From Balanoglossus misakiensis (lineage: Eukaryota; Animalia; Hemichordata): a stretch of 64,000 nt of DNA. Where the stretch lies: positions 2,981,124 through 3,045,123 of the forward strand of contig CM082586.2 in NCBI GenBank assembly GCA_040954595.2, given 5' to 3'. The notes under the pieces were generated by a model, which saw nothing but the letters and a program-made list of their open reading frames with translations, searched no databases and was not told the origin of the DNA. This document shows, in pieces, positions 1 to 21,251 of this stretch. Position 1 is the first letter of the stretch, and the number at the start of each line of letters is the position of its first letter. The position numbers and the translations under genes were made by a program.

Positions 1-3000
1 GATTTTCAAAATTTGGTGATTTTCTGATAAAAAGCATGGGTTATAGCTCATGAAAATCATCCAGAAATGTCAATTTTTCGACTTCGCGGATTTTCAAAAT
101 TTGGCGATTTTTTGATTAAAACCATGGGTTATAGCTCATGAAAATCATCCAGAAATGTTAATTTTTCGACTTCGCGGATTTTCAAAATTTGGCGATTTTT
201 TGATAAAAAGCATGGGTTATAGCTCATGAAAATCATCCAGAAATGTCAATTTTTCGACTTCGCGGATTTTCAAAATTTGGTGATTTTTTGATAAAAACCA
301 TGGGTTATAGCTCATGAAAATCATCCAGAAATGTCAATTTTTCGACTTCGCGGATTTTCAAAATTTCTTCATTTTTTCGAAAAAACCATGGGTTATAGCT
401 CATGAAAATCATCCAGAAATGTCAATTTTTCGACTTCGCGGATTTTCAAAATTTGGTGATTTTTTGATAAAAACCATGGGTTATAGCTCATGAAAATCAT
501 CCAGAAATGTCAATTTTTCGACTTCGCGGATTTTCAAAATTTGGTGATTTTTTGATAAAAACCATGGGTTATAGCTCATGAAAATCATCCAGAAATGTCA
601 ATTTTTCGACTTCGCGGATTTTCAAAATTTGGTGATTTTTTGATAAAAACCATGGGTTATAGCTCATGAAAATCATCCAGAAATGTCAATTTTTCGACTT
701 CGCGGATTTTCAAAATTTGGTGATTTTTTGATAAAAAGCATGGGTTATAGCTCATGAAAATCATCCAGAAATGTCAATTTTTCGACTTCGCGGATTTTCA
801 AAATTTGGTGATTTTTTGATAAAAAGCATGGGTTATAGCTCATGAAAATCATCCAGAAATGTCAATTTTTCGACTTCGCGGATTTTCAAAATTTGGTGAT
901 TTTCTGATAAAAAGCATGGGTTATAGCTCATGAAAATCATCCAGAAATGTCAATTTTTCGACTTCGCGGATTTTCAAAATTTGGCGATTTTTTGATAAAA
1001 ACCATGGGTTATAGCTCATGAAAATCATCCAGAAATGTTAATTTTTCGACTTCGCGGATTTTCAAAATTTGGCGATTTTTTGATAAAAACCATGGGTTAT
1101 AGCTCATGAAAATCATCCAGAAATGTCAATTTTTCGACTTCGCGGATTTTCAAAATTTGGTGATTTTTTGATAAAAACCATGGGTTATAGCTCATGAAAA
1201 TCATCCAGAAATGTCAATTTTTCGACTTCGCGGATTTTCAAAATTTCTTCATTTTTTCGAAAAAACCATGGGTTATAGCTCATGAAAATCATCCAGAAAT
1301 GTCAATTTTTCGACTTCGCGGATTTTCAAAATTTGGTGATTTTTTGATAAAAACCATGGGTTATAGCTCATGAAAATCATCCAGAAATGTCAATTTTTCG
1401 ACTTCGCGGATTTTCAAAATTTGGTGATTTTTTGATAAAACTCATGGGTTATAGCTCATGAAAATCATCCAGAAATGTCAATTTTTCGACTTCGCGGATT
1501 TTCAAAATTTGGTGATTTTTTGATAAAAACCATGGGTTATAGCTCATGAAAATCATCCAGAAATGTCAATTTTTCGACTTCGCGGATTTTCAAAATTTGG
1601 TGATTTTTTGATAAAAAGCATGGGTTATAGCTCATGAAAATCATCCAGAAATGTCAATTTTTCGACTTCGCGGATTTTCAAAATTTGGTGATTTTTTGAT
1701 AAAAACCATGGGTTATAGCTCATGAAAATCATCCAGAAATGTCAATTTTTCGACTTCGCGGATTTTCAAAATTTGGTGATTTTTTGATAAAAACCATGGG
1801 TTATAGCTCATGAAAATCATCCAGAAATGTCAATTTTTCGACTTCGCGGATTTTCAAAATTTGGTGATTTTTTGATAAAAACCATTGGTTATAGCTCATG
1901 AAAATCATCCAGAAATGTCAATTTTTCGACTTCGCGGATTTTCAAAATTTGGTGATTTTTTGATAAAAACCATGGGTTATAGCTCATGAAAATCATCCAG
2001 AAATGTCAATTTTTCGACTTCGCGGATTTTCAAAATTTGGTGATTTTTTGATAAAAACCATGGGTTATAGCTCATGAAAATCATCCAGAAATGTCAATTT
2101 TTCGACTTCGCGGATTTTCAAAATTTGGTGATTTTTTGATAAAAACCATGGGTTATAGCTCATGAAAATCATCCAGAAATGTCAATTTTTCGACTTCGCG
2201 GATTTTCAAAATTTGGTGATTTTTTGATAAAAACCATGGGTTATAGCTCATGAAAATCATCCAGAAATGTCAATTTTTCGACTTCGCGGATTTTCAAAAT
2301 TTGGTGATTTTTTGATAAAAACCATGGGTTATAGCTCATGAAAATCATCCAGAAATGTCAATTTTTCGACTTCGCGGATTTTCAAAATTTGGTGATTTTT
2401 TGATAAAAACCATGGGTTATAGCTCATGAAAATCATCCAGAAATGTCAATTTTTCGACTTCGCGGATTTTCAAAATTTGGTGATTTTTTGATAAAAACCA
2501 TGGGTTATAGCTCATGAAAATCATCCAGAAATGTCAATTTTTCGACTTCGCGGATTTTCAAAATTTGGTGATTTTTTGATAAAAAGCATGGGTTATAGCT
2601 CATGAAAATCATCCAGAAATGTCAATTTTTCGACTTCGCGGATTTTCAAAATTTGGTGATTTTTTGATAAAACTCATGGGTTATAGCTCATGAAAATCAT
2701 CCAGAAATGTCAATTTTTCGACTTCGCGGATTTTCAAAATTTGGTGATTTTTTGATAAAACTCATGGGTTATAGCTCATGAAAATCATCCAGAAATGTCA
2801 ATTTTTCGACTTCGCGGATTTTCAAAATTTGGTGATTTTTTGATAAAAACCATGGGTTATAGCTCATGAAAATCATCCAGAAATGTCAATTTTTCGACTT
2901 CGCGGATTTTCAAAATTTGGTGATTTTTTGATAAAAACCATGGGTTATAGCTCATGAAAATCATCCAGAAATGTCAATTTTTCGACTTCGCGGATTTTCA

Positions 3001-3766
3001 AAATTTGGTGATTTTTTGATAAAAAGCATGGGTTATAGCTCATGAAAATCATCCAGAAATGTCAATTTTTCGACTTCGCGGATTTTCAAAATTTGGTGAT
3101 TTTTTGATAAAAACCATGGGTTATAGCTCATGAAAATCATCCAGAAATGTCAATTTTTCGACTTCGCGGATTTTCAAAATTTGGTGATTTTTTGATAAAA
3201 ACCATGGGTTATAGCTCATGAAAATCATCCAGAAATGTCAATTTTTCGACTTCGCGGATTTTCAAAATTTGGTGATTTTTTGATAAAAACCATGGGTTAT
3301 AGCTCATGAAAATCATCCAGAAATGTCAATTTTTCGACTTCGCGGATTTTCAAAATTTGGTGATTTTTTGATAAAAACCATGGGTTATAGCTCATGAAAA
3401 TCATCCAGAAATGTCAATTTTTCGACTTCGCGGATTTTCAAAATTTGGTGATTTTTTGATAAAAACCATGGGTTATAGCTCATGAAAATCATCCAGAAAT
3501 GACAATTTTTTTGACTTAGCGAATTTTCAAAATTTCTTCATTTTTTCGAAAAAACCATGGGTTATAGCTCATGAAAATCATCCAGAAATGACAATTTTTC
3601 GACTTTGCGAAATATCAAAATTTCTTAATTTTTTCGAAAAAACCATGGGTTATAGCTCATGAAAATCATCCAGAAATGACAATTTTTCGACTTTGCGAAT
3701 TTTCAAAATTTCTTTATTTTCTCAAAAAAATCATGGGTTACAGCTCATGAAAATCATTAAAAATTT
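1..3766. repeat. 88-bp tandem satellite array, about 43 monomers, truncated by the window start and degenerate at its right edge
   Basis: Monomer gattttcaaaatttggtgattttttgataaaaaccatgggttatagctcatgaaaatcatccagaaatgtcaatttttcgacttcgcg recurs at 1, 89, 441, 881, 1321 etc. (period 88). The last 3 copies are diverged. Confidence 0.99.
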
Positions 3767-3851
3767 GACGTGGCCAATACTTTGGCCAGGATTTCACGAG
3801 TGTAGAATTCTCTTTGAGGATCTCGCTCGGATCTGACGACACTGTTACCGG
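3767..3851 (-). repeat. 85-bp duplicated fragment of the last coding exon of the adjacent IFI44-like gene
   Basis: 3767-3851 matches 4182-4266 with 4 substitutions and abuts the satellite. Confidence 0.95.
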
Positions 3852-4129: not shown

Positions 4130-7100
4130 TTACGAAATAACACAGCTGCCCGTCTGCTTCGTTTCATCTTTGTACGACTTCGACGCGGCCAATACTTTGG
4201 CAAGGATTTCACGCGTGTAGAATTCTCTTTGAGGATCTCGCTCGGATCTGACGATACTGTTACCGGTGTGATCGTAGTTTGCAATCGGGAATATTTGGCT
4301 TCGATCGACCCCAATTTCATGGGCGATTCGCTTCCGTGCATCTTCTATTTCTTTTGGAGTCATTTCGTCGATGTGTGTCATCACTATAAACATCGGTATA
4401 GCGCGACCTATCAAATGAGACGTAAACATTAAAAGTTTAATTTTAGAAAACAACGCAAGAATTGAAGTAGACGCCAGTGACGTTTGAATAAATAACATTT
4501 ATGAAAGAAACATCGTGAATATGGTTCGTCATTTCGATGAAGCATATTATATGTAGGAAGACATGTTATAAGATAATATTTTCTTATAAATGGGCTCTAT
4601 ATTCCGTTTATAATTAACTACGCCCATCAGACAATTTGCAAGCCTTTATTCAACCTACCTGTTTTTGTCACAGCCTGTAAGAAGTCCGAATGCATGGTCT
4701 GAGTTCCCGCTCTTCCATTTTGTACGGCGATGACAGTCTGGATTTTTGCATGGTCTGTACTGAACCATCTGGTGGAATCTCCAATTTTAATATTTGGGGG
4801 TTCCTTACCGTTGATAATGTTCTCCATAGCCTTCTGGAGGTTCCCCTCATTTTCATAGGCCCTGACGGTGGCACCCGGCACATCCCATAAAGTGAATTCG
4901 CGCAAACCAAGGCAAATTTTATATGGGGTGTAAACGGGTGTGCCAGTCACTGGGCCGCCATACGTCGGAGCAACCGGGTGCATTTCAAGTGACTGGAAGC
5001 AAACCATATTTTGGGATATACTTTAATACAACTTTTTCTTTCATAAGTCTAGCGCCCTCACACAGCTACCATGAATGTGACATGAACGCAAAGCTAGGCC
5101 AATGGGGAAAATCCCTTGGCCGTGATGGGCCAACTTCCCAATTGAGTTCAATTTCATGATGGCCGCGTGAGGGCGCTAAAGTTATGAAAAAGGTGCCTTG
5201 TCCACCATTTCCGACTATGTATGAAAGTCAGTAATATTTAGTAATACACATATCTCATTCACGCAAAGCAAACTTTCGTCACCGTTGAATCCAAATATAT
5301 ACTATTGACAATTTTAGTGTTCATCAGCAAAGTTACCATTCCAAGAGAAAGGGTACGCACAAATAAGCTTTGGAACTAGGTTGAGAATCGAAAACAATTT
5401 TAAATTTCACAACTATCATGAGCGTGACACGACGAAAAATGCGAAATGTCAGAGGTTTTATCGCAAGCGACCGGCTAGACAAGATGGCGCCAAGCTTACC
5501 TTCATGAGAGTGTTGATAAAGGATGATTTGCCATGGGCAGCGCCTCCAATTAGAACTATGTTTTGACCACAACACATTTTTTTTATTTCGTCTGTAATTC
5601 AAAACACGACATGACTTCATTTCCAAGTCTGGTACATGTGATGTACTCCAACATAACCAAAGGGATGTTTGAGTTTGAGTACCCATTAAGAGGGTGTACA
5701 GAAAAAATTGAAAAAATGTAACATTACAACATATTTTGCACTTGCTAGAATTCTCCAAGTGACCATGGTTATTTCATTATCGACAGTCAAAAGTATCTTA
5801 CCCAAATTAGGAGAGCCGGGTACATAAAAGACAAGTTCTTTCTCAGCATATTCTGAGAGTTCATTCATTGTCGGAATTGGTGAGCTGATCCTTCCAGGGA
5901 TTTCAACTGGTTGATAGACGATAATGTCGTCATCTTCGGACAATTTGAAGGTACGCTGAATTTCTTCGGTCAGATGACATATTCTGTTAGATGTGCGGAG
6001 TTGTAATGGTCTCCTTCTCCGAGCTCCCACTTTCCCGACGTAGACGGTGATTTCTGAAAGATGTGGAAATGCTCATATATATAGAAAGGGGGTACGGGCG
6101 GGATAAAAAAAAAAAGCTCGACTGTATTGAATGAAATAAAGCTATGCAAATTAGCAGGGGGAGAGGATATGGGTCTTGTAATACAAGATTATTCATAAAA
6201 TACCGGGATTTATGTCCGAGTACAATGTACAGCGGCGGTATTTTTCCAAATTCCCTTCCGAAGTTTTTTTGTGAAAATTGTCCAAGTTGGCATTAGTTTC
6301 ACAAGGTTATTGAGGTTTGACATTCATTTCAATCAAACGTTCATTAGATGTTTGTGGGAAGTTTAGTGAAATACAATGCAGCAGATTTGGGTGCTGTAAT
6401 TACAAATGTCCACTGATTATACAACGAATTCTTTCTACTTTAAATAGGTTTTTGCTACCTAGGTGAATAATTAAAATCTCAATTGAGTCGACACAATGTC
6501 ACGATGGCCGTTTTTTGCCATGTTTTTAAGAAATGGAAGTCCATGGGGTAAAGTGATACTACGACAGCCACCATTGTCAGGTTATGTCAAGTCACTGCGC
6601 TGGCTAACGTCATGCCAGATAAAAGATATGCTAAAATGCTGGACATGATAGTGTAGGCTATATATTAACTGGGTGGCAGATGGTAACATACCGTTGCTTT
6701 CCGCCATTTCCGTGCTGCTACTGCTGCCGTCACGTGTCCGCTTTGCTTGCTTGTGGGCTGTTATTAAAATTCAGGATGTTAGAAATGTAAAGGACACACA
6801 GGTACACGGAAGAAATATTTTAGTACTTAGACTAGATTTCCACACAACGATATGTCCGTGGTTGTCGTTTTGGGGTAAAGAGTCCGAGGGGATCTCCCGA
6901 TATGCACTAGTACGCAGTCTGACTATAGAGAACTCAATTATTTTCACTTTCGTTTCTATTGTTCATACAACCTGATAAAATAGTCCCGATACTGCGAAAT
7001 TGCCATTGAATATGCAAATTAGATGCTCCTGTATACAATGTAGCTTACAGTACTGTGTGAAATCAACATCTTTAACATATTCCATAATCTTTGTTTGTAT

Positions 7101-8850
7101 TTTATGTATGCATTTGGCGTACTTATAATTCATTAGTGAGTGTAGTGTGATAATAAATGCACGTCAAAATGTTCTTGACCAGAGGTGACAAGTGAAAAAA
7201 CAGTTTAGCCTGGCCATTTGAAGTAAAACGTTGAAAGTTAGTTTTCAATCGCGATTCTGGTAAGTGGTATATTTGCTTGTAGGTCATTGTGCCGATTTCG
7301 CGAAACCGAAAGAATGAATCTAGCGGATCTGGGCTGAGTCATGACTTTGTCACAATCTATCTCTGCAGTCCTGTGGGTTGAACAAACACAGTCAACCTAC
7401 TTGCATATTTTCGTCGATATGGCGTGGGATATGTCGACGTGAAAGAACATTTGTAAGTAAACACAATATGCAAAGTGCTACACATCACAGTGACAGTACA
7501 CACACCTAGAAGTTGCTAGCTTTTTGTCGCCATTAACATCCACTTTCATCTTCCACGATACGATATATGAAACCTAACTTAAAGTCGAGATAAAAATCGT
7601 CGCCTTAATATTTGATATGGATCGTGGATGGACACAAAAGTCGTACTAACCAGAACAAGGTTGTGCTGTTCGCGTGAATGTACCACCTTCGGGTGAAAGG
7701 ACCCTTGATATCAAGGGTCGAATCTCGGGCTAGTCAAAGGTTGAGATTTCATGAGTTTAAAATATACCCGTACCCCAGTTGAGGTATAAGGTCATCTTTA
7801 ATTTACATATGTCTACATACATTGTCAAAATAGCGTGTCTAAGTCTTCGAAGCCATAGGCATATGGTGGCGCAACATTTTCGCATGTATGTATAACATAA
7901 ATTAAACAATTCTGTTTAATTAACTATCCGAAATACCGTTGTATTTACCTTCATATTCTTTTACTTCTTCTTTACATTGCTCATACTCAATTTCTGACAT
8001 TGTTACTTCCATGGTGATGTATTTTGCCTGAAGTTTCTCCAGCAGCTGCCCAGTGATAATTGCTTTCTGGAAAACTTGCTGTAACTCCCCACTTTTGTAC
8101 TGGCCCCATAGCTTTTCCAGCACCTCCGTTTTGCCACACCAAACCACACACTCGATGGATGAACGCCTGAACTCTTTTATAAGAGTCCCGACCCTTTCCA
8201 GATGGTCCTCAACCATTTGCAGGGCACCCTCTTGACTCAAGTCAACACTATCGTAGACTCTTCTCATAATATAATAGTATGTGCGTGTACTCTCATCCGC
8301 TGCCATGGGTTGGTCACCTACAACTTGAAAATCCTCCAATGCAGCAAGTACTGAAAGTTCGCCTGAAATGAAAATAAATCTTGTGTTTGATTGCTAAAGC
8401 CATTTTCGTATATCAAAGCATAGACAGGAGTATTTCAACCCAACTAACAGAAAGAAAATCAGTACAAATCTCCATCTAAGAACCAAATCTTGACTTATGA
8501 AAATCAGAAAATGGAAATTTCAAAGTTAACTTACATTGTTGTCTTCTCCCCCTCACGCCGGTTTCTTCCAGAAACTTAATGACCATTGTTTTGAGTGGCA
8601 TCCTCTTGATTGTTTCGAACAAATCCAGCAGCAAGTCCAAATTGTCATCGCGTATGTGACCCCTATCTTTGAGGTAATGAAAAAGCTCTGTTGCCGTTCC
8701 CACACTTTCAGTGTCCTGTATGTCCAGTTGCTGATCTCGTAACAAGTCCTTCATGGTGGCGACTTCTTCAAGGGACAGCTTTTGCGCCAATTCCACGAAT
8801 AATTTGTTTAATGGATTAATGTTGTCTGTGGGATCCGGAGCTTCAGCCAT
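4130..8850 (-). CDS. DED + TRADD-N-like + ubiquitin-like + IFI44-like GTPase with C-terminal CaaX (CVIS), about 583 aa, 7 coding exons
   Basis: Exons 8850-8535, 8362-7949, 6757-6692, 6053-5802, 5591-5500, 4992-4659, 4407-4130, all GT-AG and phase-compatible (1752 nt). ATG in strong Kozak context GCGGCCATGG. DED pattern LFVELAQKLSLEEV...ELFHYLKDRGHIRDDNLDLLLDLFETIKRMPL. TRADD-N-like SIECVVWC...LEKLWGQYKSGELQ...MSEIEYEQCK. GTPase motifs GGAAHGKS, LWDVPG, THID, ANY. Joining the DED half to the GTPase half is inferred. Confidence 0.8.
5039..5189. mobile_element. MITE-like element with about 37-bp imperfect terminal inverted repeats, intronic
   Basis: tttcataagtctagcgccctcacacagctaccatgaa (5039-5075) is near reverse-complementary to ttcatgatggccgcgtgagggcgctaaagttatgaaa (5153-5189). 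Confidence 0.65.
6941..6956 (-). promoter_or_regulatory. IRF-E/ISRE-like motif GAAACGAAAGTGAAAA, intronic
   Basis: Three GAAA cores on the minus strand, about 190 bp upstream of the 66-nt exon. Confidence 0.5.
7302..7312 (+). promoter_or_regulatory. ISRE-like motif GAAACCGAAAG, intronic
   Basis: Matches the GAAANNGAAA consensus. Confidence 0.4.
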
Positions 8851-10307
8851 GGCCGCAATTTTTGTTGCTGTTTTAACGTAAATCACAACTTCAGAGTTTA
8901 TTGCGAAACGAGGCCTGCGAGACAAAAAGGAAAATGTCACTTTGATGATCTAGATCATATAGTACACAACAAACAAAGTTACCCGGCCACTTTGCGCCGG
9001 CTTGAAAAACCATACCAGATACATATGCAAGGTATTATGTCTTATTATTATATTAGGTGAAATATGAAAAATAAAGATTTTAAACATATTTACTTCACTA
9101 CCGCAGCCGTTTCAATTCGATATCGCTATTACCTCCCAAAACCTCCCAAAGAGTACCAAACTTGTACAATCAAAAGTCAAAACGTTCCTGATTTTAAATT
9201 GCAAACATATTACTAAGTCAGCTTCAGTCACTGTGGGATGATCTAAATATGCTCTGGTGACTGTTTACAGGGTCACTAACTATGGACAGATTTATGGCGT
9301 CTTGTACTGTATTGCTAAGCCAGTATAGGGAAGTGGGGTTATACAGGTCAGACCTACACACATGTAAATAAGATTTGGCTTTTCTCTGTGTAAAGTTGGG
9401 CCAAAAGTCAACCACTGAAGATCATTGAGTACAGGTCTTTTCCAAACCGTAAATTTACTAATTTGGGTGAAAGAATTAATAGCTTCCAAACAAGGTATGT
9501 TGTCATATCGGCCAGCAGTGCCGCCATATTTATATCCCCAGGAAAATGAAAACACTGAGGAAATTAACTATGCAGAAGCTTATGGCACACTTTCCTGTTT
9601 AGTATATTGTTGCAGACATTTACTCAGTTGATTAATTGATGACAGTATGTGTTCTGTAAGCCTTGGGCTGGATTGTACTTGTATCTGTAAAACGTATATT
9701 ATTTCCTTCGAAGTCTACAATGTTGAAGTTGACACAGGATATACTTCTGAATACTCTGGTTCTTGTTTCACCTGTACACCTAATGCCTGCTGCTAATGTG
9801 TCTCAGAGTATAACGTGACTTATCATAATAATTGAAGTCTAAAATACCTTAAATCAAAGATTCTTTCTCTGATACACTCCGGACACAGCGGCGATGAATT
9901 TTGAGTTGCACAGCTGGTGAAAACGTTATAGTACTCAGGTATCAAAGTTCGACATTTGCATGTGAATGATCTCACGGGTTGACTACATGTACTTCGTTGT
10001 CCTTTGCTTGGTCGAGTCGCTGGCTTTCCTTTGCCCCCCCCCCCCCCAGACAGCACTGGAAGAGGTCAGGAATATAAATGATTCAAAAATTAGGATAACA
10101 AAGGTTAAGTGCATTATGGTAACGTACGTTAGTCCTAAGCAACAAACAAAAAATATGCAAACTATAAGAGTGAACAATATGGCGTCCACAGATGAGATAA
10201 AACTGTGTTGTCGAAATGTAATTTTGTTTTAGCTATAGGCCTATACATGTACTTCTTGAAGGTGCAATTAGTGGCTTGAAGAAAACATATAATACTTTCG
10301 ATACAGT

Positions 10308-10320
10308 CACTTTCACTTTC
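10308..10320 (-). promoter_or_regulatory. IRF1/2-type element GAAAGTGAAAGTG in the shared divergent promoter region
   Basis: cactttcactttc at 10308-10320, between the two divergent ATGs (8850 and 10661). Confidence 0.6.
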
Positions 10321-10660: not shown

Positions 10661-13135
10661 ATGTTAAAGTTTTGGGGAGCTTCAAGTTCTCAGCAACCGT
10701 CAGCTCAGGTCGAGGCTGGTGAACAGCGGGAAAATGCGAACGTGGACGAGACTATCAAAGTGTACGTGCGATATGCCCAGGGAGCTAAGAACCCAGTACC
10801 AATTGACTGTGCGAGAGAAGACACGGTGTACGAGCTTGCAGGCAAACTGAAAGTTAACGCCCACAAGTTCAAGCTAACAGACGATGACTTCGATGAATCC
10901 GAAGTCGATCTATACACAGTGGGAACGAACGACAAGAAGACAAATCTGCATCCCAGCGTTAAGATATCAACATTGATCGGTAGTAAAGTAGAATTTGACA
11001 CAGGCAGTAAGTACGTTACATGGTACCAGCGTCAGTACATGGGGTTGTTTATATATGGCAGAACCGGATCAGTATGAGTTTGTTTATTCTAGTATGCAAG
11101 TGACCTGGTTTCAGAGGAGTAATTCGTCCTTGGAAAGTAGTAAAAGATGAGCTCAACGCCAAGATCTTCATGAACTTGACATTTCTGTTCTTGGTGCGAT
11201 ATGAGATAGCAGCGCTTGACATTATCTTTCAGTTTCAACACTATTCGCAATAACGCTGTTCAGGTAAAGTCCTATGATGGCGACTGAAGGGACACCGGCG
11301 TGAATGCTTGGTATACCTGTTGTTTATTTACCGACGCGCATATAGTATTACTGAACGTTAATGAGTAACAGGGTTCATGCACGATGCTATAGTCGATGAA
11401 TTATAAAATAATATGTTATTTCTCATGTTTTCCCTAAAACGGGCACAGATGCGGCATTTTTCTATTTCCCGTTATTCTTGGCGTCAAAGTAATTGCTTAA
11501 ATATTCAATACATTTATTTCATTATCTGACAGATTTCGTCGTGTATGTCGGGCACATCAGCCAGACGAGCGAAGAAATGTTCAACTGTCGGGAGAAAAAC
11601 ACCGTGTACGACCTCATATGCAAATTAAGAGAACGACTTCACGAGTTCGGCTTGCCACCGGCTGACGTCGAGCGTGTTTGGTTGAACGAGGGCCGTTTGC
11701 AGATTTACAAAAAAGCCAAATTACCAGGCGGGGTGAATACACCACTAGTGCTCAGTCAACGCCTGGATGAAATGAAAGGCGAAACACTACTTTTCGACAT
11801 GATTTCAAGATCTGTTGACATAGGTGGGTATTGAGCAGAGGTTAACAGTCATTACCCATAATATTTGATTGTTTTTTTTTAGTATTTTGGTCTCGAGTAT
11901 TTAAATCTGTCTGTCTGTCTGTCCCACTCTCTCAGAATGTATTAGCAAGAAGTGCTGTGGGCAAAACATTATCTTTTTTGGTGGCCCATCTCACGGAAAG
12001 TCGTCTACGATCAATACAATTGTAAAGGTAAGTGGCCAACTTCACTTCTATTTACACCACATGCGTTTTTGATGACACATATTATGACCTTGCCAAGTAC
12101 AGAAGGAATGAACGTATCTTTTAATTGTCGCTTACTTACTTTACATTTAGTCAATGCAAGGCTTCCATCAGAATTTGGCGCAGACTTTCACCGCTGTTAT
12201 GGCCGGAACCACAGTTTACACGCCCTACAGGATCGACGTCAAGAGCAAAAGTTTTACACTCTGGGACGTTCCCGGCACTTCGCTGTCGAGCAAGATAAGT
12301 CGCCATGCAACCGACGGCAGGCGAGTCATCCAGAATATCCTGGACGGCAAGCTGCCGGCCCATAGTGCGATTGACGGTCCCTTCAGGAGCAGCGGTCTGG
12401 AGGCGGACAAGATTCACGCGGCGGTGTGTGTGCAAAAAGGAACTGCCGAACTCGAGCGATTGCATTCAATGGTGTTTGAAGCAACTCGTAGACACGGTAA
12501 GAATTCTTTCCTGTCTACTTTTCCTCGCATTAGAAACATTGAATAATTGATTGCGTAATTGTAGTCTGCCTTGTTATATCAACTGTCCATGGACATCAAC
12601 ACTTTCAGCGTGTTAATTAAAGAACTTTTATCATCCAATTAGCGCTCGTGTCATAAAAGTTTGGGCGTCTGTGATTGGTGAATATCGATCCCACATTCCT
12701 ATTGGCCAAGAGTGTGAATAAGTACACAACTGTCATTTTTCTACCCAAACAGGTCGAAGCATGCCGGTGTTCTTCATCATAACGCACCAAGATCAAATGG
12801 AGGACCATGAAGTAGAGGACAAAATCAACGAAGTGTCCGGGACTTTTGGGGTCGACAAAAGCGCCATATTCACGATAGCAAACTACGACCACACAACACT
12901 TTACAACGACGACCCGCAGAGAGACGCGCATGTGTTGTCCGCTCTCTGGCAGATGCTGTCCTGTGCGTACACCTACAAAACGAGGGGACGGGTCCAGATT
13001 GGTGAATCGGTTGGCCCGTATGACATCGAAGATAGGATAGAACAGACAGAACCAAGGACAGAACCAGCCCCTGCACCAGAACGCCCTCAACCACGGCCGG
13101 CGCGACACCGTGTTGAATTCTGTGTAATATCTTAA
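10661..13135 (+). CDS. Tandem ubiquitin-like domains + IFI44-like GTPase with C-terminal CaaX (CVIS), about 485 aa, 5 exons
   Basis: Exons 10661-11006, 11533-11823, 11936-12027, 12151-12496, 12753-13135 (1458 nt, phases consistent). G1 GGPSHGKSSTIN, G3 LWDVPG, DKIHAAVCV, G4 THQD, ANY...DPQRDAHVLSALWQML. This resembles the IFI44 C-terminal pattern (THVD...SNY...DP.KD..ILSALRRML). The two N-terminal exons share VYV...C....TVY(E/D)L..KL. Confidence 0.88.
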
Positions 13136-15815
13136 AGATATGTATAAATAATATGACCAAAAATTCGGACAAACCCTTCTTCTTGGAACTTGTAAATATC
13201 ATGAGCAATTTTTCGTTGCAATTAGCAAATTTATGAATAAATCGAATGATGTCGCCTTTACTGCCATGCTGTTACCTGTAGTGTTTATGCCTCATGCGAA
13301 TAGGTCACCTGATATTCGCCAGGGGGTTAATTGTGGTGTGCCCACTTTCAGTGAAAGCGTTGCGGCAACTTGATAGGCCCTACACAATCTATTATGATCC
13401 GTAGACAACAGTAGGCATCTACGGTATGAAAGTATCAGGCCTGTTGTTACCTTCAGTAGTTCAACATCTCAGTGGACTCGATAATAAAGAAAGTGAAAAT
13501 GGCTAAAAAAGACAAACAAACAGACAAGCAAACAAACTAACAGACCGTAAAAATATGAGGCATGATCTGCATTGGTGAATTTATGTCATATGCAAATAAG
13601 CTATGTCAAGGCCGCGCTCTCATTGGAGTTGAACAAGACGCTTTACCGTGAGCGGAGCAGCAGGCCAAAAGACAGACTCATTGCAGATAACATGCTGTAT
13701 ATGTGACACAGAATGTAAGTTTTGTCTTGTAACATAGACTGGCTTTTAAAACAGGAAACGCAAATATCTATGAGCAAATATAGCCGGAATATAACCATGG
13801 CGTCAGCAACACATTGTTCATTGATTACAAAGGTATACTCTACCCGGAACCGTAAACCTTTACATTTAATTCTCAGCGTCCTGCACCTTTCCCGAATTAT
13901 ATTATAAGATGGTCTTAATTTTGTATATTTATGTTATTCATTTATCTCCCGTGGGTTTTACAACTTAGACGAGGTAAATTTAAAGGTGAACCTATGGTCA
14001 AGGACACAGGTGCTTTACCGATACGAAGTGCGCGCTGCTGGGTTTGTCTGTGGCCAGTGTACCATACCTACATGTATTTTCAACTGGATACCCATTGTCG
14101 ATGCTCACAAAAGAAAATGCATTAAGCGCTCCAAATCCGATATAGGCCTCGGTATTTTTTTTTACTCTAGCGTGGTTTTCTAGATCACAGATTACTTACG
14201 TTCAGACGTGACTTTTTACGCGTACCTATATGCAGTATTACATTTTTGAATACAAGTTCGAAAATTCATTTGTGACTGATTAAAAGGACACGATCACCTA
14301 TTCAAATTTAAGTATCTCACTTTACTTTGACACAAACGGTGGAGTGAACAACTCATGATGGCAAACCAGTTAAAACGGGTATGCACGGGCACAAATATCG
14401 CGCAGTGCATGAACATTGGACCCAGTCGAGTGGCCAATATACCTGTACAGCTCTTCTACGGGAGTGCGTCCCCCGGGGCGTTTTACGGTCCGTGACTTTG
14501 AGAAATTGCTTTACGGCCACACGGCCGTACAAACCGGAATTCTAAGTATTTTTGCCCTACCTTGACCTAAGAAAAGGGACATAAACGGTGACCTAGTATA
14601 AAACGACTGGTTACTGAATGATCTGAGGTATAACCCAGGTTGACAGTGCCGTTTGGCCCTGCCCATATTTTTTCATCGCAACTTGCAGTTTGGTGCAGTG
14701 TGGTAAGTAACCGATATAATATATTCAAAGACTTTGCAAAATATTTAATGGGAGGAATGTCACTAAAACTATATAATGTATTAAGCTGGATTTTTGGCTT
14801 CGATGGCGGACAGTAAGTTCTAACCTGCTGTACGTTTACTTCACTGAAGTTGTCGGTCAAGTACAGGCTTGCGTCTGCGGCAAGCGAGACCAGGTTTACG
14901 CCGGCGAATTAAGAATGACCAGCCAATGACCGGAGTGATTTGACTTCGCGGAATCTGAAATATCACGGACCACTCCAGGGGAATTATTTTTTGGTATGGC
15001 AACACAATACATCGTCACCTTTAACCCACTGGTGTGTTATCACTTTGTGGAACGCACGTGATTGAGTATCATTTACTCCGTCGCTAACAAGAGTGCATGG
15101 CGACTTCGACAAACTCTGGCATGGCAACATTTAGAATTTAACGGCAGTATAGGCTTTGATGCAAGGGAGGTAACGCCAGTATTCTCGCGGAAGTTCTGAG
15201 GAGGCCAAGGAGGCCAGTGGTTCCTCGCGCGTGCGCAGAGGCCACCAACATACCAAAACAGGAGCTTGGTATGTTCGAGTTGTACGTCCTTTTACCAGGT
15301 CGTTGTTTTGTCGAGTAAAGGTGTCCCAATATAATTATATTTATATAGGACAGGCCTACTATAAATAGTTTCTCGCTCTACTTAAATGTCAAGGACCTAA
15401 CAGAGTTGACCTCAGTGTGTTTTGGCTGTGGGCAATGTCACCTGGACGACTGGGTCACATACCGAACTTAGCTCACCAGTATATCAATAAACTATTCCGC
15501 TGACTGTATTTGGTGCTTTTGGGAAAGAGGGAGGTTGCCCTAGACTTGTCATTCAGGTTGACAGACGAGGCCAATCAACGGCAGGTGTTAGGTTCGGGTG
15601 AAATAAATGATATCTATGACCACACGGCATTCCTTGGTTGCGCTCTGCATAGGTGTGTGGGGCGGGGGGACCTGGCTGTATTTTGAAGTCAGTACATGTA
15701 CTAGTATAGCAGAGTCTAGTACCCGACGACAAATACCCCCACTGTGATTTTAAAACGCCGGCCCTTACAAATTTAATTGTGTTCTCCCGTGTTCACCTTC
15801 TTGCAGAAAGCCACG

Positions 15816-17819
15816 ATGTCGAAGGCTTACGTGTGCACACTGAGCGAGGATTTGCAGGAGAGGGCTAGAGTGGAACTTAACGAAGACCCCGAGACACGAA
15901 TGGCGAAGGTGGAGCAGCTGCGAAGTATGTTCAAGACCAGACCGGACATAATCTTCAGACAGGACGATTTCTTCCTGCTGCAGTTCCTGAGGAACAAGAA
16001 ATTCGACGTCCAGAAAGCCTTCAAGAAGATCGTGCATTACTACGAGGTGAGGAGGGACTGCACGGACATTTTCGGGACATTCCTACCGCTTGATTACAAG
16101 TACATTTTCGACGCGGAGATGGAGATGGTCTGCCCCGGAAGAGACGCCGAAGGGCGGAAGGTTATTATCGCTAGAAATTGTGAGTATAACCACCGAGGAT
16201 GCAACTGAAGCATCGCCTTGTTTTTTTATTTGGCCCAATCAAACCGTTGAATAACATGGGCGATAGAAAGAAGGGAGTCATTTTTGGCTTAGAAAGTAAT
16301 ACCAGGTGACTAAAACTCCATAAACGCCACTAAACAACTTTGTAAACAAACATGCACCTTAACAGGAATGCAAGCTACGCGAATTGGTATTCATGGACGG
16401 AATTTATTGCGTCCAATTTTGGCGTGATGAATTGCCTTGTACCTGGCTTGCATGGTTCAGTTGCAGTGAATGGTTTCAAAGGCGTACAAACCTCGCCTTA
16501 TTTATCACCTCGGCCAATAGGAAACGCGTTCGCAGCTACATGTATATCGTGTCTATGTACGAATGTATCGATCCTTCCATCCATCTAGTCGACCAGCCAG
16601 GGAGACAGACAGACAGACGGACAGAGAGACACATCTATATATCCACCAACCACTAATCCATACACTGATCAACCCAACCCCACCAATCCATCGATCCGTG
16701 GATCCGTCCGCCTATATGTCTGCTTGTCTATCTGTATGACTAAACTGACGAACTGCCCGAAGACAACTGCTAGTCATACAGCTAGACCAATAAATAGTAC
16801 ATCCGCTAGTCCGTCGGTCAGTCACAGTCAGTCAGTCAGAGTGAGTCCGTCAGTAGTCTGATAGGATAATAACTGAACCCTACTTATTTGTATCTCAGCT
16901 AGATGGGATGTGGACAGGTATGACGTAGCCGACGGGTTCAGAGGATCGCTGATGATGATGGAGACGATAATACAGGAAGAGGAATCGCAGATCAACGGAG
17001 TGGTTCTCATCGCTGACTATGAGGGCTTCACCATGAAGCACTTCACCAAAACCAAGCCGTCACTGATGAAAAAGATGACTGATATTTACGAAGTGAGTTT
17101 TTGTCCCCCTTTTTGCCAGTGAGGGCGCAGACTGTTTGCTCAGACCGTCATACACAAGGCATCGTGTCATTCTGATTCCATCTTTGTTGTTTTCTTCAGA
17201 ACGCCTTGCCGATACGTATTAAAGCTATTCACTTTGTTAACCAGCCGGAGATCTTCACTAAAGTGTACGCAATTATGAAGTCATTTATTAGTGAAAAGTT
17301 AACTAGCAGGGTAAGTAAATACAATGTAATGGTTTAGTAGACTTTAGTTTTGTCCCTTCTTTTCACCCAATTTGCTTCTTTCCCGATCTCCGACACAGAC
17401 TATGGCCGCCGCCATCTTGTCTGTTGTTACGACAGCACACTTTGCATTGACTGTACATGTATACACATTTGAATAAACCAGAGTCTCTGGTTTGGCACAT
17501 GCGCATAAGACGATCTCTGCCATTTAAAGTTCCTTTCACTAAATTGTGTAGTTTTTCTTTTCAGTTGCACTTCCACGGTGAAGAGTATGGTAGTCTACAT
17601 AAGTACGTACCGTCTGCAATGCTCCCGGCCGACCTGGGCGGACAGCTGCCCGAGTTTCAGAACAAAGAGTGGCGGGAAAAACTTCTGGCGTCCAACCCCG
17701 TGTTTGAACGCAATAACAGGTTCGGGTTCCCGCAGGCGACGAGGTCCGTAGGAGAGACTGGCGTGGCGAGCGAACTGAATTATGGGATGACGGGGTCATT
17801 CAAGAGACTTGACATTTGA
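15816..17819 (+). CDS. CRAL-TRIO (Sec14) domain protein, alpha-tocopherol transfer protein-like / clavesin-like
   Basis: Exons 15816-16179, 16899-17092, 17200-17310, 17565-17819. Motifs DDFFLLQFLRNKKFDV, ESQINGVVLIAD, LPIRIKAIHFVNQP, LPADLGGQL. Confidence 0.93.
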
Positions 17820-20180
17820 TGACCTCTTGGTGGCGCTGTTCGCGTACACTAATCGTGACCTTTGTGAATCTGGTGACCGGAAGTGCAACGTGTTTGCGAC
17901 ACACAGACAGTATTTCTTGGATATGCAGTTCAGTAGCTTTCATGTCGTTTATAAATCTCGAAAAGATGGTGGTATTTCAGGAGCGACATTTTCAAGTACC
18001 ACATCTCCGGTCCCAGATAGTGATCACAACTAGGTTGCAAGATTTGAATGGGTGTATTGTATTCCGTGACCAAAAAGAATATATGTCCGAGGACTTTTGC
18101 TCATTATATTTATATCTCAGGAGAAGTCACCAGTCAATGCAACATGGTTGCTAGCGTCGAGCACCTATGCAAATTTCGCCCCAGTTACAATGACAAGTTG
18201 AGGTCTAACCAATGACAGATTTTCATGTGGTGGCCACGCAAGACAATACACACCTTTTAAAGGCGGAACTCCCGTATAAAAGCGCGAGAGCACGCGAGAG
18301 TTGGCATAATGGTGGGAGATTCAAACTCACTAACAACAGAACGGACGTTGTCCATAAAAGACTGTAAATTTAGGTCTACCGATGATTTTTTTTGTCTCTA
18401 AATTCTATACATGCGTATATGTAAATTAGAAGTGATTGTATACATTTAATCACGTGGTTCATTTATTATTTTGGCATATAATAATGTGAATTAGAGTTGC
18501 CAGGGGTGATCAATTGTAAATAATTAAACTGGATTATTAAAGGACGGGCATCGTCCCACACAGGTGGTAGAGTGTCAAAGTAGGCACAAAGTCAAACTGT
18601 TACGATGTACATAATTGAAAACAATACGTTTTGATACTTTGTATATATTGCACTATATACCATGGTAAATACAATGAGTCGTTGCTTCTTATCACATTTC
18701 GAAGTTATTTGCTGTAACATGTATTGATTGGCAGGTACTCCTTGTACAGTTAGATCAATGCCGATGATATGTTTATGAACAGGAAAGTCGCACATGTGCA
18801 GTTAGGACGAAATTCCCCTTTAAATATTTATACATTGCAGATAAAGTGTTACAGAACTTAGTTTGACAGGTTGTTAACCGTTGAAAAACGTGCGGTCATT
18901 CAGAGGGGACCTTCAAGATTTCTGATAAATGTCGTATTTTATCCATCAAAGGGACCGACATACTGTTAAATGTCATAGTCAGCTTCTCTCCATATCGAGT
19001 TATTCCTTTTTAGTTTTAGGGGGATTTCTTCTTATTTGAAATGAAATAAAACTTGTCACGTTGCAACACTCATATCACGTTTCACGGCTTCCGTCTTCAT
19101 GGTAAATAATCTGTCCAAAAGCACCGACGCGGCCAATACAATATGAATGAGGAACTTCCACGCCTTGTCTGTCTTAGAATTCGCCACGTTTCTGGTTAAC
19201 AAGAGGCCTCGCATTGTGCTTTCTCTTGATACATGTAGTCTGAAACTTCCACACTTTCCATCACACGTGCTCCATCTGCTTCATTATGAATTGTCTGCTG
19301 GTTTCTCCCGCCTTCATTGTGAATAGACCTTTCGAGAGCGCAAAACATACAAAAACCACCAAGACGCATAATGGAGGAACTTCTAGACAACCCCGCCTGC
19401 CTTGGTCATCGGCACGTTTCTACTTAAGGGCAAAGTGGCGACTCTGTCGAACAGACACTGAGCCTTAACCATTCTACATCTATTCTCAGGTTTTCCCATC
19501 TTTGATCACGCGTTATACGTATTTCGTCTAATATTCTTATTGTAAACATCGTGTTCGAAAATACGACACAGCAAACACCAATACGTCAACTTTCGGATAG
19601 CATATGTCTCTGGTTGAAGGCAAGAACGTGGGTTCTCTTTTGTGAATGGGAGATTTTTTTCAAAACATGCTGTGTGTATTGTTAATTTTAAAAAATAATA
19701 AAAGACGCGTGACATTTACGACGATTTAACAAGGACGTCGATGTCTGGTGATATATCTTAAATCGAGCAAAGGGCGCTGTGGCATGCTTATTTGGAAAAT
19801 TGTTTTTCTGATATTTGCTTACTAAACCTCGAGAAGTTTAAAGAGTAAACAACGTCGCATGCACGTATGCACACATACACGCGTACATACACACACAGTT
19901 CTTGGACAGTGTAAGAATCTTTCTGGAGTAGGGTGCGTGCATTTATTTCAACAGCCTGAGTCTTTGCAGGGAGTGGTACAGACGTCAGTTGCGATTGTGT
20001 CGTACGTCATCCGACAACAAGAAAACACATCTGCATATTAATGCCTTTCAAAAGTCCTGCAGTACAAGAGATAGCCTTCGAATATCCAGTTTGTCGCCAG
20101 CATCATATTAAATTGACTTGTCATGAAGTTTGCGTTCATTCGTTTCTGCAATCTACGAGAGCTGTACACAGACTGAAAAT

Positions 20181-21251
20181 ATGAACAGCACGGTTTCCAG
20201 TAACGATAGCCGCACTGCGCCTGAGATTGTACTGCCGGTGTCATGGGCGACCGACCTGTCCGGTGCTCTTGAGATCGTCCTGGCGTTGGGAGCAATCTTC
20301 GGCAATACTCTGTTCATCTTGATAGTTTTCTTCAAGAAAAAACTGAGGTCGTCCATGAATATATTCTTGGTCAACCTGAGCGTGACGGACATCATTGCAG
20401 CAATCTTCGTCTCTCTCCCAACGGCAGATTCCTATCTGCACCGAAAGTGGCGCTTGGGAGCCAAATTCTGTCTGGTACACAATGTCCTCAACCCGGTACT
20501 GATTTCAGTTTCGCTCTGGCTGACAGCATTCATCTCCATCAATCGGTACATCTTCATCGTCCACAACGAGAAGTACCGTCGACTTACCAACAAAGTTACG
20601 CTGGCACTTGCATTTGTATTTGCCTGGTGTTTTCCGATAGCGAATGAGTACGCCGTGTTTCAAGACACATCTCGATCAAGATACTCACCACCATCTTTTC
20701 GTTGTCAGATGCCCGGTACCCAAGTTCTCTTTGTACTCCTGTTCTACACCCCTACGATTATTGTACCTTTGGTGTACCTTCCGATCATCGTCTACGTGAT
20801 GAAGAGCAGGCGTCGCGTTCAGAGCCACCAGTCGCAAAGTGCCGGTGCAAATGGTCCATCTTCACAGGAAGTCCGTATGCTGCTGGTCATTGTCGGCGTC
20901 TTCTTCATGGTCATGCTCGGTTACCTACCATTCGTCATCCTGATCAACTGTTACCAGATCTACGGCCAAAGACCACCACCAGAGGCTATGATCTTGATGT
21001 ACCCCTTGATTCACGTCGGAGGCGTCATGAACCCCTTCCTGTACGGCATCAACAACAGGCACTTCAAAGAAGCGTACAAAGAGCTACTGACGGGAAAACT
21101 ATTCCGAAAACGCGGACGTGCAAACCAGGTGGCACAAGCACCGAATTCAAGCAATCGTCCAACTGACATGAGCCTGGACACCAGCAGTAAAAACCCAAGG
21201 ATGACCCAATCAACGGTGAACGAACAGGTGGGCGGGCCAAGCACTGTCTAA
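20181..21251 (+). CDS. Intronless rhodopsin-class GPCR (melatonin-receptor/moody/Tre1-like group), ligand unknown
   Basis: Seven hydrophobic segments. GN in TM1, NLSVTD in TM2, NRY in place of DRY, NPFLY in TM7, N-terminal NxS/T sites. Confidence 0.93.
   Translation: MNSTVSSNDSRTAPEIVLPVSWATDLSGALEIVLALGAIFGNTLFILIVFFKKKLRSSMNIFLVNLSVTDIIAAIFVSLPTADSYLHRKWRLGAKFCLVHNVLNPVLISVSLWLTAFISINRYIFIVHNEKYRRLTNKVTLALAFVFAWCFPIANEYAVFQDTSRSRYSPPSFRCQMPGTQVLFVLLFYTPTIIVPLVYLPIIVYVMKSRRRVQSHQSQSAGANGPSSQEVRMLLVIVGVFFMVMLGYLPFVILINCYQIYGQRPPPEAMILMYPLIHVGGVMNPFLYGINNRHFKEAYKELLTGKLFRKRGRANQVAQAPNSSNRPTDMSLDTSSKNPRMTQSTVNEQVGGPSTV

Follow-up and report, generated by a model that had tools for sequence, protein, structure and literature searches.

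A DED and TRADD-N-like exon pair lies in frame upstream of an apparent IFI44-like GTPase gene in Balanoglossus misakiensis and may be a later addition spliced onto an old start exon

Background

Proteins in which a DED and a TRADD-N domain form a constant region joined to variable effectors have been described from marine invertebrates by Kaur et al. (2021; PMC8195603), who count 22 copies of the DEDD2 clade in hemichordates. They report fusions to AIG and GBP GTPases and to polyubiquitin, and their table, in the supplements searched, places TRADD-N with a GTPase-AIG domain in eight rows (Branchiostoma XP_019614641.1 carries this pairing), with GBP in two and with a dynamin-like GTPase in three. 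Four of the 24 Saccoglossus rows combine DED with TRADD-N, at 483-828 amino acids, and a GTPase label appears in none of the 24. The name IFI44 was not found in the text passages or supplements of that study that were searched, nor an IFI44 or TLD label in those supplements; it may be that the label "GTPase-AIG" hides IFI44-like domains. For TRADD-N itself, an internal position between two domains is much commoner than a terminal one (p 6e-68), and Kaur et al. model it as an autoinhibitory hinge between its neighbours that is freed on signal. The classical TRADD clade is limited to vertebrates, and MATH/TRAF is not a universal partner of the invertebrate TRADD-N domains (PMC8195603).

Two kinds of immune GTPase are also relevant. 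IFI44 has a G1 motif of the form GxxxxGKS and no catalytic Gln after G3, and deletion of G1 from the human protein did not reduce its effect against RSV (bioRxiv 10.1101/2020.02.24.963900), so that a GTP switch is not established even in human IFI44. IFI44 is immune-inducible in vertebrates and oyster (bioRxiv 10.1101/2020.02.24.963900; PMC11682996), and canonical IFI44 and IFI44L carry an N-terminal TLDc domain (PMC11682996). GBP1 needs its CaaX box to coat bacteria and takes part in a GBP1-caspase-4 platform (PMC7314798).

The gene considered here, gene A, lies in a window of 64,000 nucleotides, by which we mean the whole stretch of DNA analysed. It has the N-terminal dyad of the Kaur et al. 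class, with an effector following in an open frame, and is unlike the rows of their table in having a ubiquitin-like domain, a GTPase and a CaaX box together, and in a junction that appears to keep an old start exon (PMC8195603). DEDD2 likewise pairs a DED with TRADD-N but has no GTPase (PMC8195603). Compared with IFI44 and IFI44L of human, fish and oyster, gene A has the same G1 and no Gln after G3, with a ubiquitin-like repeat and a CaaX box rather than TLDc. The likeness to the GBP1-caspase-4 platform (PMC7314798) is that of a membrane-targeting, inducible GTPase with a CaaX box and a proposed link to a death protease; the GTPase family is a different one, the helical stalk is missing, and the platform is shown for GBP1 and conjectured for gene A. 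A family of acorn-worm proteins, for example XP_070558157.1 of Ptychodera flava and XP_077990209.1 and XP_077990398.1 of Glandiceps talaboti, has the same ubiquitin-like repeat unit and G motifs as gene A, without DED or TRADD-N.

The first-pass annotation of this DNA had set the fusion against partners of the NACHT and ROC type, a premise that is weakened by the TRADD-N fusions to AIG-, GBP- and dynamin-like GTPases already on record (PMC8195603). Fusion of DED and TRADD-N to immune GTPases is already published; we found no published example with an IFI44-like partner in the literature searched. A word-index search with the family alignment among proteins of 939-2680 amino acids gave no match, a weak negative, as this range misses the 583-residue size of the gene A product.

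Exon structure of gene A

Gene A lies on the minus strand between 8850 and 4130. Its seven exons join into 583 codons with no internal stop, and all six introns are GT-AG, in phases 1, 1, 1, 1, 0 and 1. The domains are predicted to follow one another as a DED, a TRADD-N-like domain, a short linker, a ubiquitin-like domain and a P-loop GTPase, and the protein ends in a CVIS prenylation box, which had gone unremarked in the first-pass annotation.

9771, 9847, 10127 and 10310: donor-like sites from a donor scan, upstream of acceptor 8914, candidates for a preceding exon
8851-8914, minus: probable 5' untranslated part of the DED exon, inferred from 17 pyrimidines in the 20 positions before the AG of acceptor 8914
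8535-8850, minus: exon 1, DED, amino acids 1-105 (Pfam match)
7949-8362, minus: exon 2, TRADD-N-like domain of the DEDD2 type, amino acids 106-243, phase 1-1 (PF20694 match below cut-off)
7915-7948, minus: read-through into intron 2, nine codons, stop at 7920 directly followed by the variant poly(A) signal ATTAAA
6692-6757, minus: exon 3, 66 nt, phase 1-1, with an in-frame ATG at 6707 (Met261)
5802-6053, minus: exon 4, ubiquitin-like (beta-grasp) repeat, the N-terminal unit of the GTPase family
5500-5591, minus: exon 5, GTPase G1 (G365-x4-GKS372)
4659-4992, minus: exon 6, GTPase, probable G2 at Thr398, G3 DVPG followed by Ala and not Gln
4130-4407, minus: exon 7, G4 (THID) and the last helix, with the CVIS CaaX box at the C terminus before the stop

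The exon coordinates, phases and lack of a frameshift given in the first-pass annotation are borne out by this model, and so is its read-through stop at 7920, which would yield a product of 252 amino acids. Donor 7948 departs from the consensus at one position, and equally good sites make up 54 of the 7690 GT sites in the window. Acceptor 6757 has an AG-free zone of 66 nt and a branch-point-like motif; the loose filter used also lets through six further AGs of intron 2. Exon 3 is the first homology-supported exon downstream of exon 2, at a distance of 1.19 kb. The chance of an in-frame match between exons 2 and 3 is about 1/3 for phase times 0.78 for a stop-free frame, or roughly one in four, and in both paralogues of the window the ubiquitin-like exons begin in phase 1 regardless; frame compatibility is for these reasons weak evidence. 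The potential for in-frame splicing of exons 1 and 2 onto the GTPase exons is thus confirmed at the level of the sequence, and the splicing itself is a prediction.

The 3' side of the gene is unusual. An 88-nt copy of part of the last exon (3764-3851, 94% identical) lies 415 nt downstream and directly adjoins an 88-bp satellite (1-3757; 42.7 copies, 97% matches), and the first sense-strand AATAAA after the stop, at 3718, is within the satellite. The 3' end of gene A may be rearranged. Within intron 5, a MITE-like 42-nt inverted repeat (81%) with a 67-nt spacer (5039-5189) encloses a kB-like site at 5115.

The GTPase and its relatives

A paralogue of the GTPase half, gene B, lies head to head with gene A, 1.8 kb upstream of it.

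10661-13135, plus: gene B, 485 amino acids, two ubiquitin-like repeats, GTPase and CVIS, no DED (open frame, GT-AG introns)
10661-11006, 11533-11823, 11936-12027, 12151-12496 and 12753-13135, plus: exons of gene B

A profile of exon 6 built from both genes and searched against 1.84 billion representatives gave 21 matches. Five of these (P0015, P0017, P0019, P0020 and P0021) are repeat-rich proteins of the Ig/PKD/pilin type or other unrelated proteins, and the 16 true family members, seven from Glandiceps talaboti and nine from Ptychodera flava, are all annotated as "uncharacterized"; P0003 is one sequence under two RefSeq accessions. The members have one to three copies of an N-terminal ubiquitin-like repeat (no repeat in three fragments) and then a G domain with G1 GxxxxGKS, G3 DxPG and G4 mostly THxD. 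They are 28-46% identical to gene A, while gene B is 57% identical to P0001 of G. talaboti. In a tree from which the fragments P0005, P0011 and P0018 were left out, the standalone P0003 and gene A pair up (support 98/97) within a group of CaaX proteins that have a single repeat (97/92), while P0001 is the partner of gene B (96/94). The G. talaboti records suggest that the members from that species form a cluster. A CaaX end is present in all five proteins of the sister clade of gene A and in nine of 18 relatives; CVIS we take to be a box of the farnesylation type.

Exon 4 has no Pfam match. A profile of 12 family sequences searched against the PDB gave weak matches (best E 2.6e-4, over summed repeats), for the most part to chains of ubiquitin, ubiquitin variants and ISG15, one of the 12 family members has a Pfam ubiquitin match, and the secondary structure in a model of P0003 agrees with a ubiquitin-like repeat. 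The case for a ubiquitin-like N-terminal repeat is weak but consistent.

The P0003 model, of the closest relative, has a pLDDT of 78.5 and a TRAFAC GTPase fold (Z about 15 over 160-170 residues). PDB searches returned generic TRAFAC GTPases, GIMAP and Toc34 folds among them, and no specific solved neighbour. In the ESM Atlas, six of ten structure rows for P0003 are IFI44-named or TLDc+GTPase clusters, with TM 0.52-0.57, all below the naming bar, and the feature score is 0.87; exon 6 alone gave no clear family there, and a word-index search with it among proteins of 196-2000 amino acids found no match, a weak negative. Homodimer prediction for the P0003 G domain with GTP and Mg scored 0.04 against a mark of 0.32, which speaks neither for nor against a dimer.

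Gene A contains a P-loop GTPase region of the IFI44 type, with G1, G3 without Gln, and G4. There is no TLD match in its exons or in the 16 relatives, and since TLDc is absent we call the modelled domain IFI44-like, apparently nearest to IFI44 and IFI44L, and do not file it as IFI44. A GBP identity was rejected (neither GBP nor GBP_C is matched by Pfam in the exons or in the 16 relatives, and the P0003 model ends after the G domain, without helical stalk), as was a GIMAP/AIG1 identity (AIG1 at E 0.098 for exon 5, and a match in one of 16 relatives at 23.7 bits against 27). The analogy to GBPs drawn in the first-pass annotation is thereby weakened: the GTPase of gene A looks IFI44-like and stalkless, and the CaaX box is the sole feature that it shares with GBP1. 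Gene B and 18 database proteins together define an acorn-worm family of one to three ubiquitin-like repeats followed by an IFI44-like GTPase, half of them with a CaaX box, of which we found no published description in the literature searched.

Downstream of gene B, the window holds a CRAL-TRIO-like gene with a weak Pfam match (15780-17819, plus) and a rhodopsin-family GPCR of up to 374 amino acids that seems to occupy a single exon (20127-21251, plus). Between 31000 and 58500 the genes are ordinary by Pfam: an MFS transporter (34.7-35.1 kb, minus), WDR35/IFT121 (44.8-48.1 kb, plus), a mitochondrial carrier (51 kb, plus) and an exostosin-like glycosyltransferase of family 64 (56 kb, minus).

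The DED and the TRADD-N-like domain

Exon 1 matches the Pfam DED profile PF01335 at 50.9 bits, above the cut-off of 35.9, and its best PDB match is PEA-15 (E 1.3e-4), likewise a single-DED protein, in which the RxDL motif is intact and no GTPase is attached. At the RxDL position exon 1 reads R83-M-P-L86 where the aligned PEA-15 has R-P-D-L, so that the aspartate is missing. The hydrophobic FL motif of the type Ib surface would presumably fall at D35-L36, on the FADD/caspase-8 register. RxDL is a hallmark motif of DEDs (PMC7156525), and its loss lowers the case for a canonical filament-forming DED but not that for a DED fold. With the aspartate missing, this DED more probably serves as a tether or modulator than as the seed of a filament, and the earlier suggestion that it nucleates caspase-8/FADD assembly is correspondingly weakened.

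The second domain is only probable. Exon 2 matches PF20694 (TRADD-like_N) at 22.0 bits (E 1.4e-4), short of the cut-off of 23.7, over profile positions 4-68 of 69. Within the matched stretch, S173-S174 is likely the "uS" turn (beta2-beta3) of TRADD-N, by an inferred placement in the fold; the serine of this motif contacts TRAF2 in TRADD (PMC8195603). A single-sequence model of exon 2 reached a pLDDT of 41.6, too low for a reading of the RRM/ACT-like fold tested, and exon 2 has no PDB sequence match and none in a word-index search among proteins of 241-2000 amino acids, a weak negative. Neither PF09034 nor Death matches the exons, and a classical, TRAF2-binding TRADD was rejected. Of the module claimed in the first-pass annotation, then, the DED, the open frame and the immune context stand, as does TRADD-N as a probable domain, and the further claim of TRAF recruitment is weakened, since for invertebrate TRADD-N domains MATH/TRAF is not a universal partner (PMC8195603). 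No second copy of the DED or TRADD-N exon occurs within the 64-kb window.

Origin of the upstream exons

DED and TRADD-N are missing from all 16 relatives, and of 18 proteins aligned with gene A not one reaches upstream of its residue 260. Met261, encoded by the exon-3 ATG in good context, aligns with Met1 of the standalone P0004, P0022 and P0023, and the remaining 323 residues compare with their 325. Because Met261 lines up with the start of these relatives, exon 3 is likely the old first coding exon of the GTPase gene. The 66-nt exon had been read as a shuffled symmetrical linker; a former start exon describes it better, and in a transcript that includes exons 1 and 2 its leader would be translated as a Ser-rich linker.

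The CpG content over the DED/TRADD-N exons is also distinct.

7948-9870: CpG-depleted island spanning the DED and TRADD-N exons plus 1 kb before them, probably an inserted segment; its left edge is uncertain

CpG in the window has two levels, about 1.0 observed over expected across 3.8-22.8 kb, where the GTPase genes, the CRAL-TRIO-like gene and the GPCR gene lie, and for the most part 0.2-0.8 beyond 28 kb, at housekeeping-type genes, with a CpG-normal bin at 38.8-39.8 kb that may mark a promoter. Such a pattern is that expected of gene-body methylation in invertebrates. Within the CpG-normal zone just two 1-kb bins fall below 0.8, and these cover the DED/TRADD-N exons with the kilobase upstream of them. 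Positions 7949-9950 hold 44 CpG where 77 would be expected (p 1.5e-4, for boundaries set after the fact). Blind scans also found a depleted segment, equalled in none and in one of 2000 permutations, and placed its left edge at 7948 or 9190 according to the model; a codon-level control was marginal (p 0.03). Intron 2 is at 1.04. The coincidence of the left edge with the exon-2 donor was lost in a per-G model and is not relied on.

Because this CpG-poor island sits inside CpG-normal DNA, the simplest reading of the sequence is that the DED/TRADD-N cassette has a history unlike its flanks and arrived later, although the contrast is compatible with two separate units too. Neither intron 2 nor the upstream region has a repeat match within the window. 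Retrotransposition has been proposed for the expansions of DED+TRADD-N genes (Kaur et al., PMC8195603), but both cassette exons keep their intron, which would point to a copy made at the DNA level.

Regulatory motifs

Immune-type motifs occur in intron 2 and elsewhere at the two-gene locus.

6888-7311: cluster of immune-type motifs in intron 2, a candidate for a former promoter or enhancer
7302 (plus) and 6942-6955 (minus): IRF-element-like sites in intron 2
6888-6898: palindromic NF-kB-like site in intron 2
10307-10320, minus: IRF-element-like site in the head-to-head interval between genes A and B
11227-11236: IRF-element-like site in the first intron of gene B
13489-13498: IRF-element-like site downstream of gene B

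All are matches to vertebrate consensuses, picked after the sequence was seen, and the counts should be read accordingly. GAAASTGAAA occurs six times against 0.81 expected, four of them between 6.9 and 13.5 kb. A related IRF pattern has five of seven occurrences in the two-gene locus (p 0.002), and a broader pattern, less enriched, has seven of 19 (p 0.02). Three of six kB-like sites fall in the locus, two of them one palindrome, at a borderline p of 0.056. The IRF and kB motifs of intron 2 would lie 130-550 nt upstream of a short form starting in exon 3.

One protein or two

The reading that we prefer, at about even confidence as a whole, is that the DED and TRADD-N exons came later, as a cassette that stands in frame ahead of an IFI44-like GTPase gene and is spliced to its old start exon, to give a 583-residue protein that is predicted to be prenylated and inducible. 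The fused RNA taken by itself we consider fairly likely to be a real isoform. It is favoured by the seven-exon open frame with GT-AG borders throughout, by the near-consensus donor at the end of the TRADD-N domain, by the real-looking acceptor at exon 3 and by the lack of any sense-strand AATAAA in intron 2, where about one is expected. The internal placement usual for TRADD-N and the precedents for its pairing with immune GTPases (PMC8195603) also speak for fusion. Counting against it, no DED or TRADD-N accompanies the GTPase in 16 relatives, ATTAAA stands right behind the read-through stop, and proteins with a DED and TRADD-N only are known (DEDD2). Translation from the exon-3 ATG probably still yields a 323-residue short form, and the fused and short products may both be made.

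The same ATTAAA and ATG would serve two separate units, which we think somewhat unlikely: a 252-residue DED+TRADD-N adaptor, ending at stop 7920 with poly(A) at ATTAAA and acting as a modulator like DEDD2 or PEA-15, and the ancestral 323-residue protein of ubiquitin-like repeat, GTPase and CaaX box transcribed from an IRF/NF-kB promoter in intron 2. The start shared with relatives, all of which are standalone proteins, agrees with this arrangement, as do the motifs and the CpG level of intron 2, and donor-like sites at 7400, 7505, 7650 and 7820 could close a non-coding first exon. Those donors, however, have two mismatches each, with none at that level between the kB site and exon 3; ATTAAA is expected by chance 0.52 times per kb per strand; and the arrangement must ignore the near-consensus donor at the end of a domain that is seldom terminal (PMC8195603).

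It is also conceivable, if quite improbable in our view, that a DED/TRADD-N piece of another gene, recently duplicated into the upstream region or first intron of the GTPase gene, is mostly skipped or silent and has yet to decay, the short GTPase alone being functional. The foreign CpG signature, the degenerate DED motif, the lack of a fused relative and the instability of the locus (the last-exon duplicate abutting the satellite) would fit an inert insertion; such an insertion is harder to square with the 243 open codons, the three splice sites, all intact, and the good context of the ATG.

Least probable of all, and by our estimate very unlikely, is a version of the platform of the first-pass annotation in which a GTP oligomer would coat membrane or microbe as GBP1 does, the DED would nucleate a FADD/caspase-8 filament and TRADD-N would recruit TRAF: the CaaX box that GBP1 needs on bacteria (PMC7314798), a G3 not followed by a conserved Gln, a trait of IFI44 and GBP1 as well, a DED above the Pfam cut-off and a likely "uS" serine of the kind that contacts TRAF2 in TRADD (PMC8195603) are set against R-M-P-L at the RxDL position, a requirement of caspase-8 activation for FADD F25 (PMC11074299), exons and 16 relatives without a GBP or GBP_C match, a model without a stalk, and the finding that MATH/TRAF is no universal partner of TRADD-N (PMC8195603). 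The presumed FL position, D35-L36, would tell in the same direction. GBP1 is not known to have a built-in death-fold adaptor.

If the fused protein of the preferred reading is made, IRF and NF-kB signals would induce the gene A locus, and the CaaX lipid would hold the GTPase on a membrane. TRADD-N would pack against its neighbours and hold the protein inactive, in line with the proposal of Kaur et al. for the DED+TRADD-N class (PMC8195603), until a change driven by GTP or an invader freed the DED to bind host DED proteins, rather as a tether or modulator than as a filament seed. The GTPase would thereby be linked to death or inflammatory signalling.

Implications

The locus appears to keep traces of the birth of a fusion, in an old start exon, old immune motifs now in an intron and a foreign CpG signature. 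The predicted fusion is seen in one genome, and its general design is already in print. The most far-reaching reading, which we hold to be unlikely, is that the DED-TRADD-N cassette was recently shuffled into a member of the acorn-worm family of IFI44-type GTPases with ubiquitin-like repeats and prenylation boxes, took over the old start exon and so produced a membrane-anchored GTPase hard-wired to DED death signalling. Were it true, the long and short forms, together with gene B, would make the locus a natural with/without pair, and the shuffling event would point to a role of IFI44-type GTPases. The joining of a death-fold adaptor and a lipid anchor would then be a testable clue that GTPases of this type act on membranes and feed death-fold signalling.
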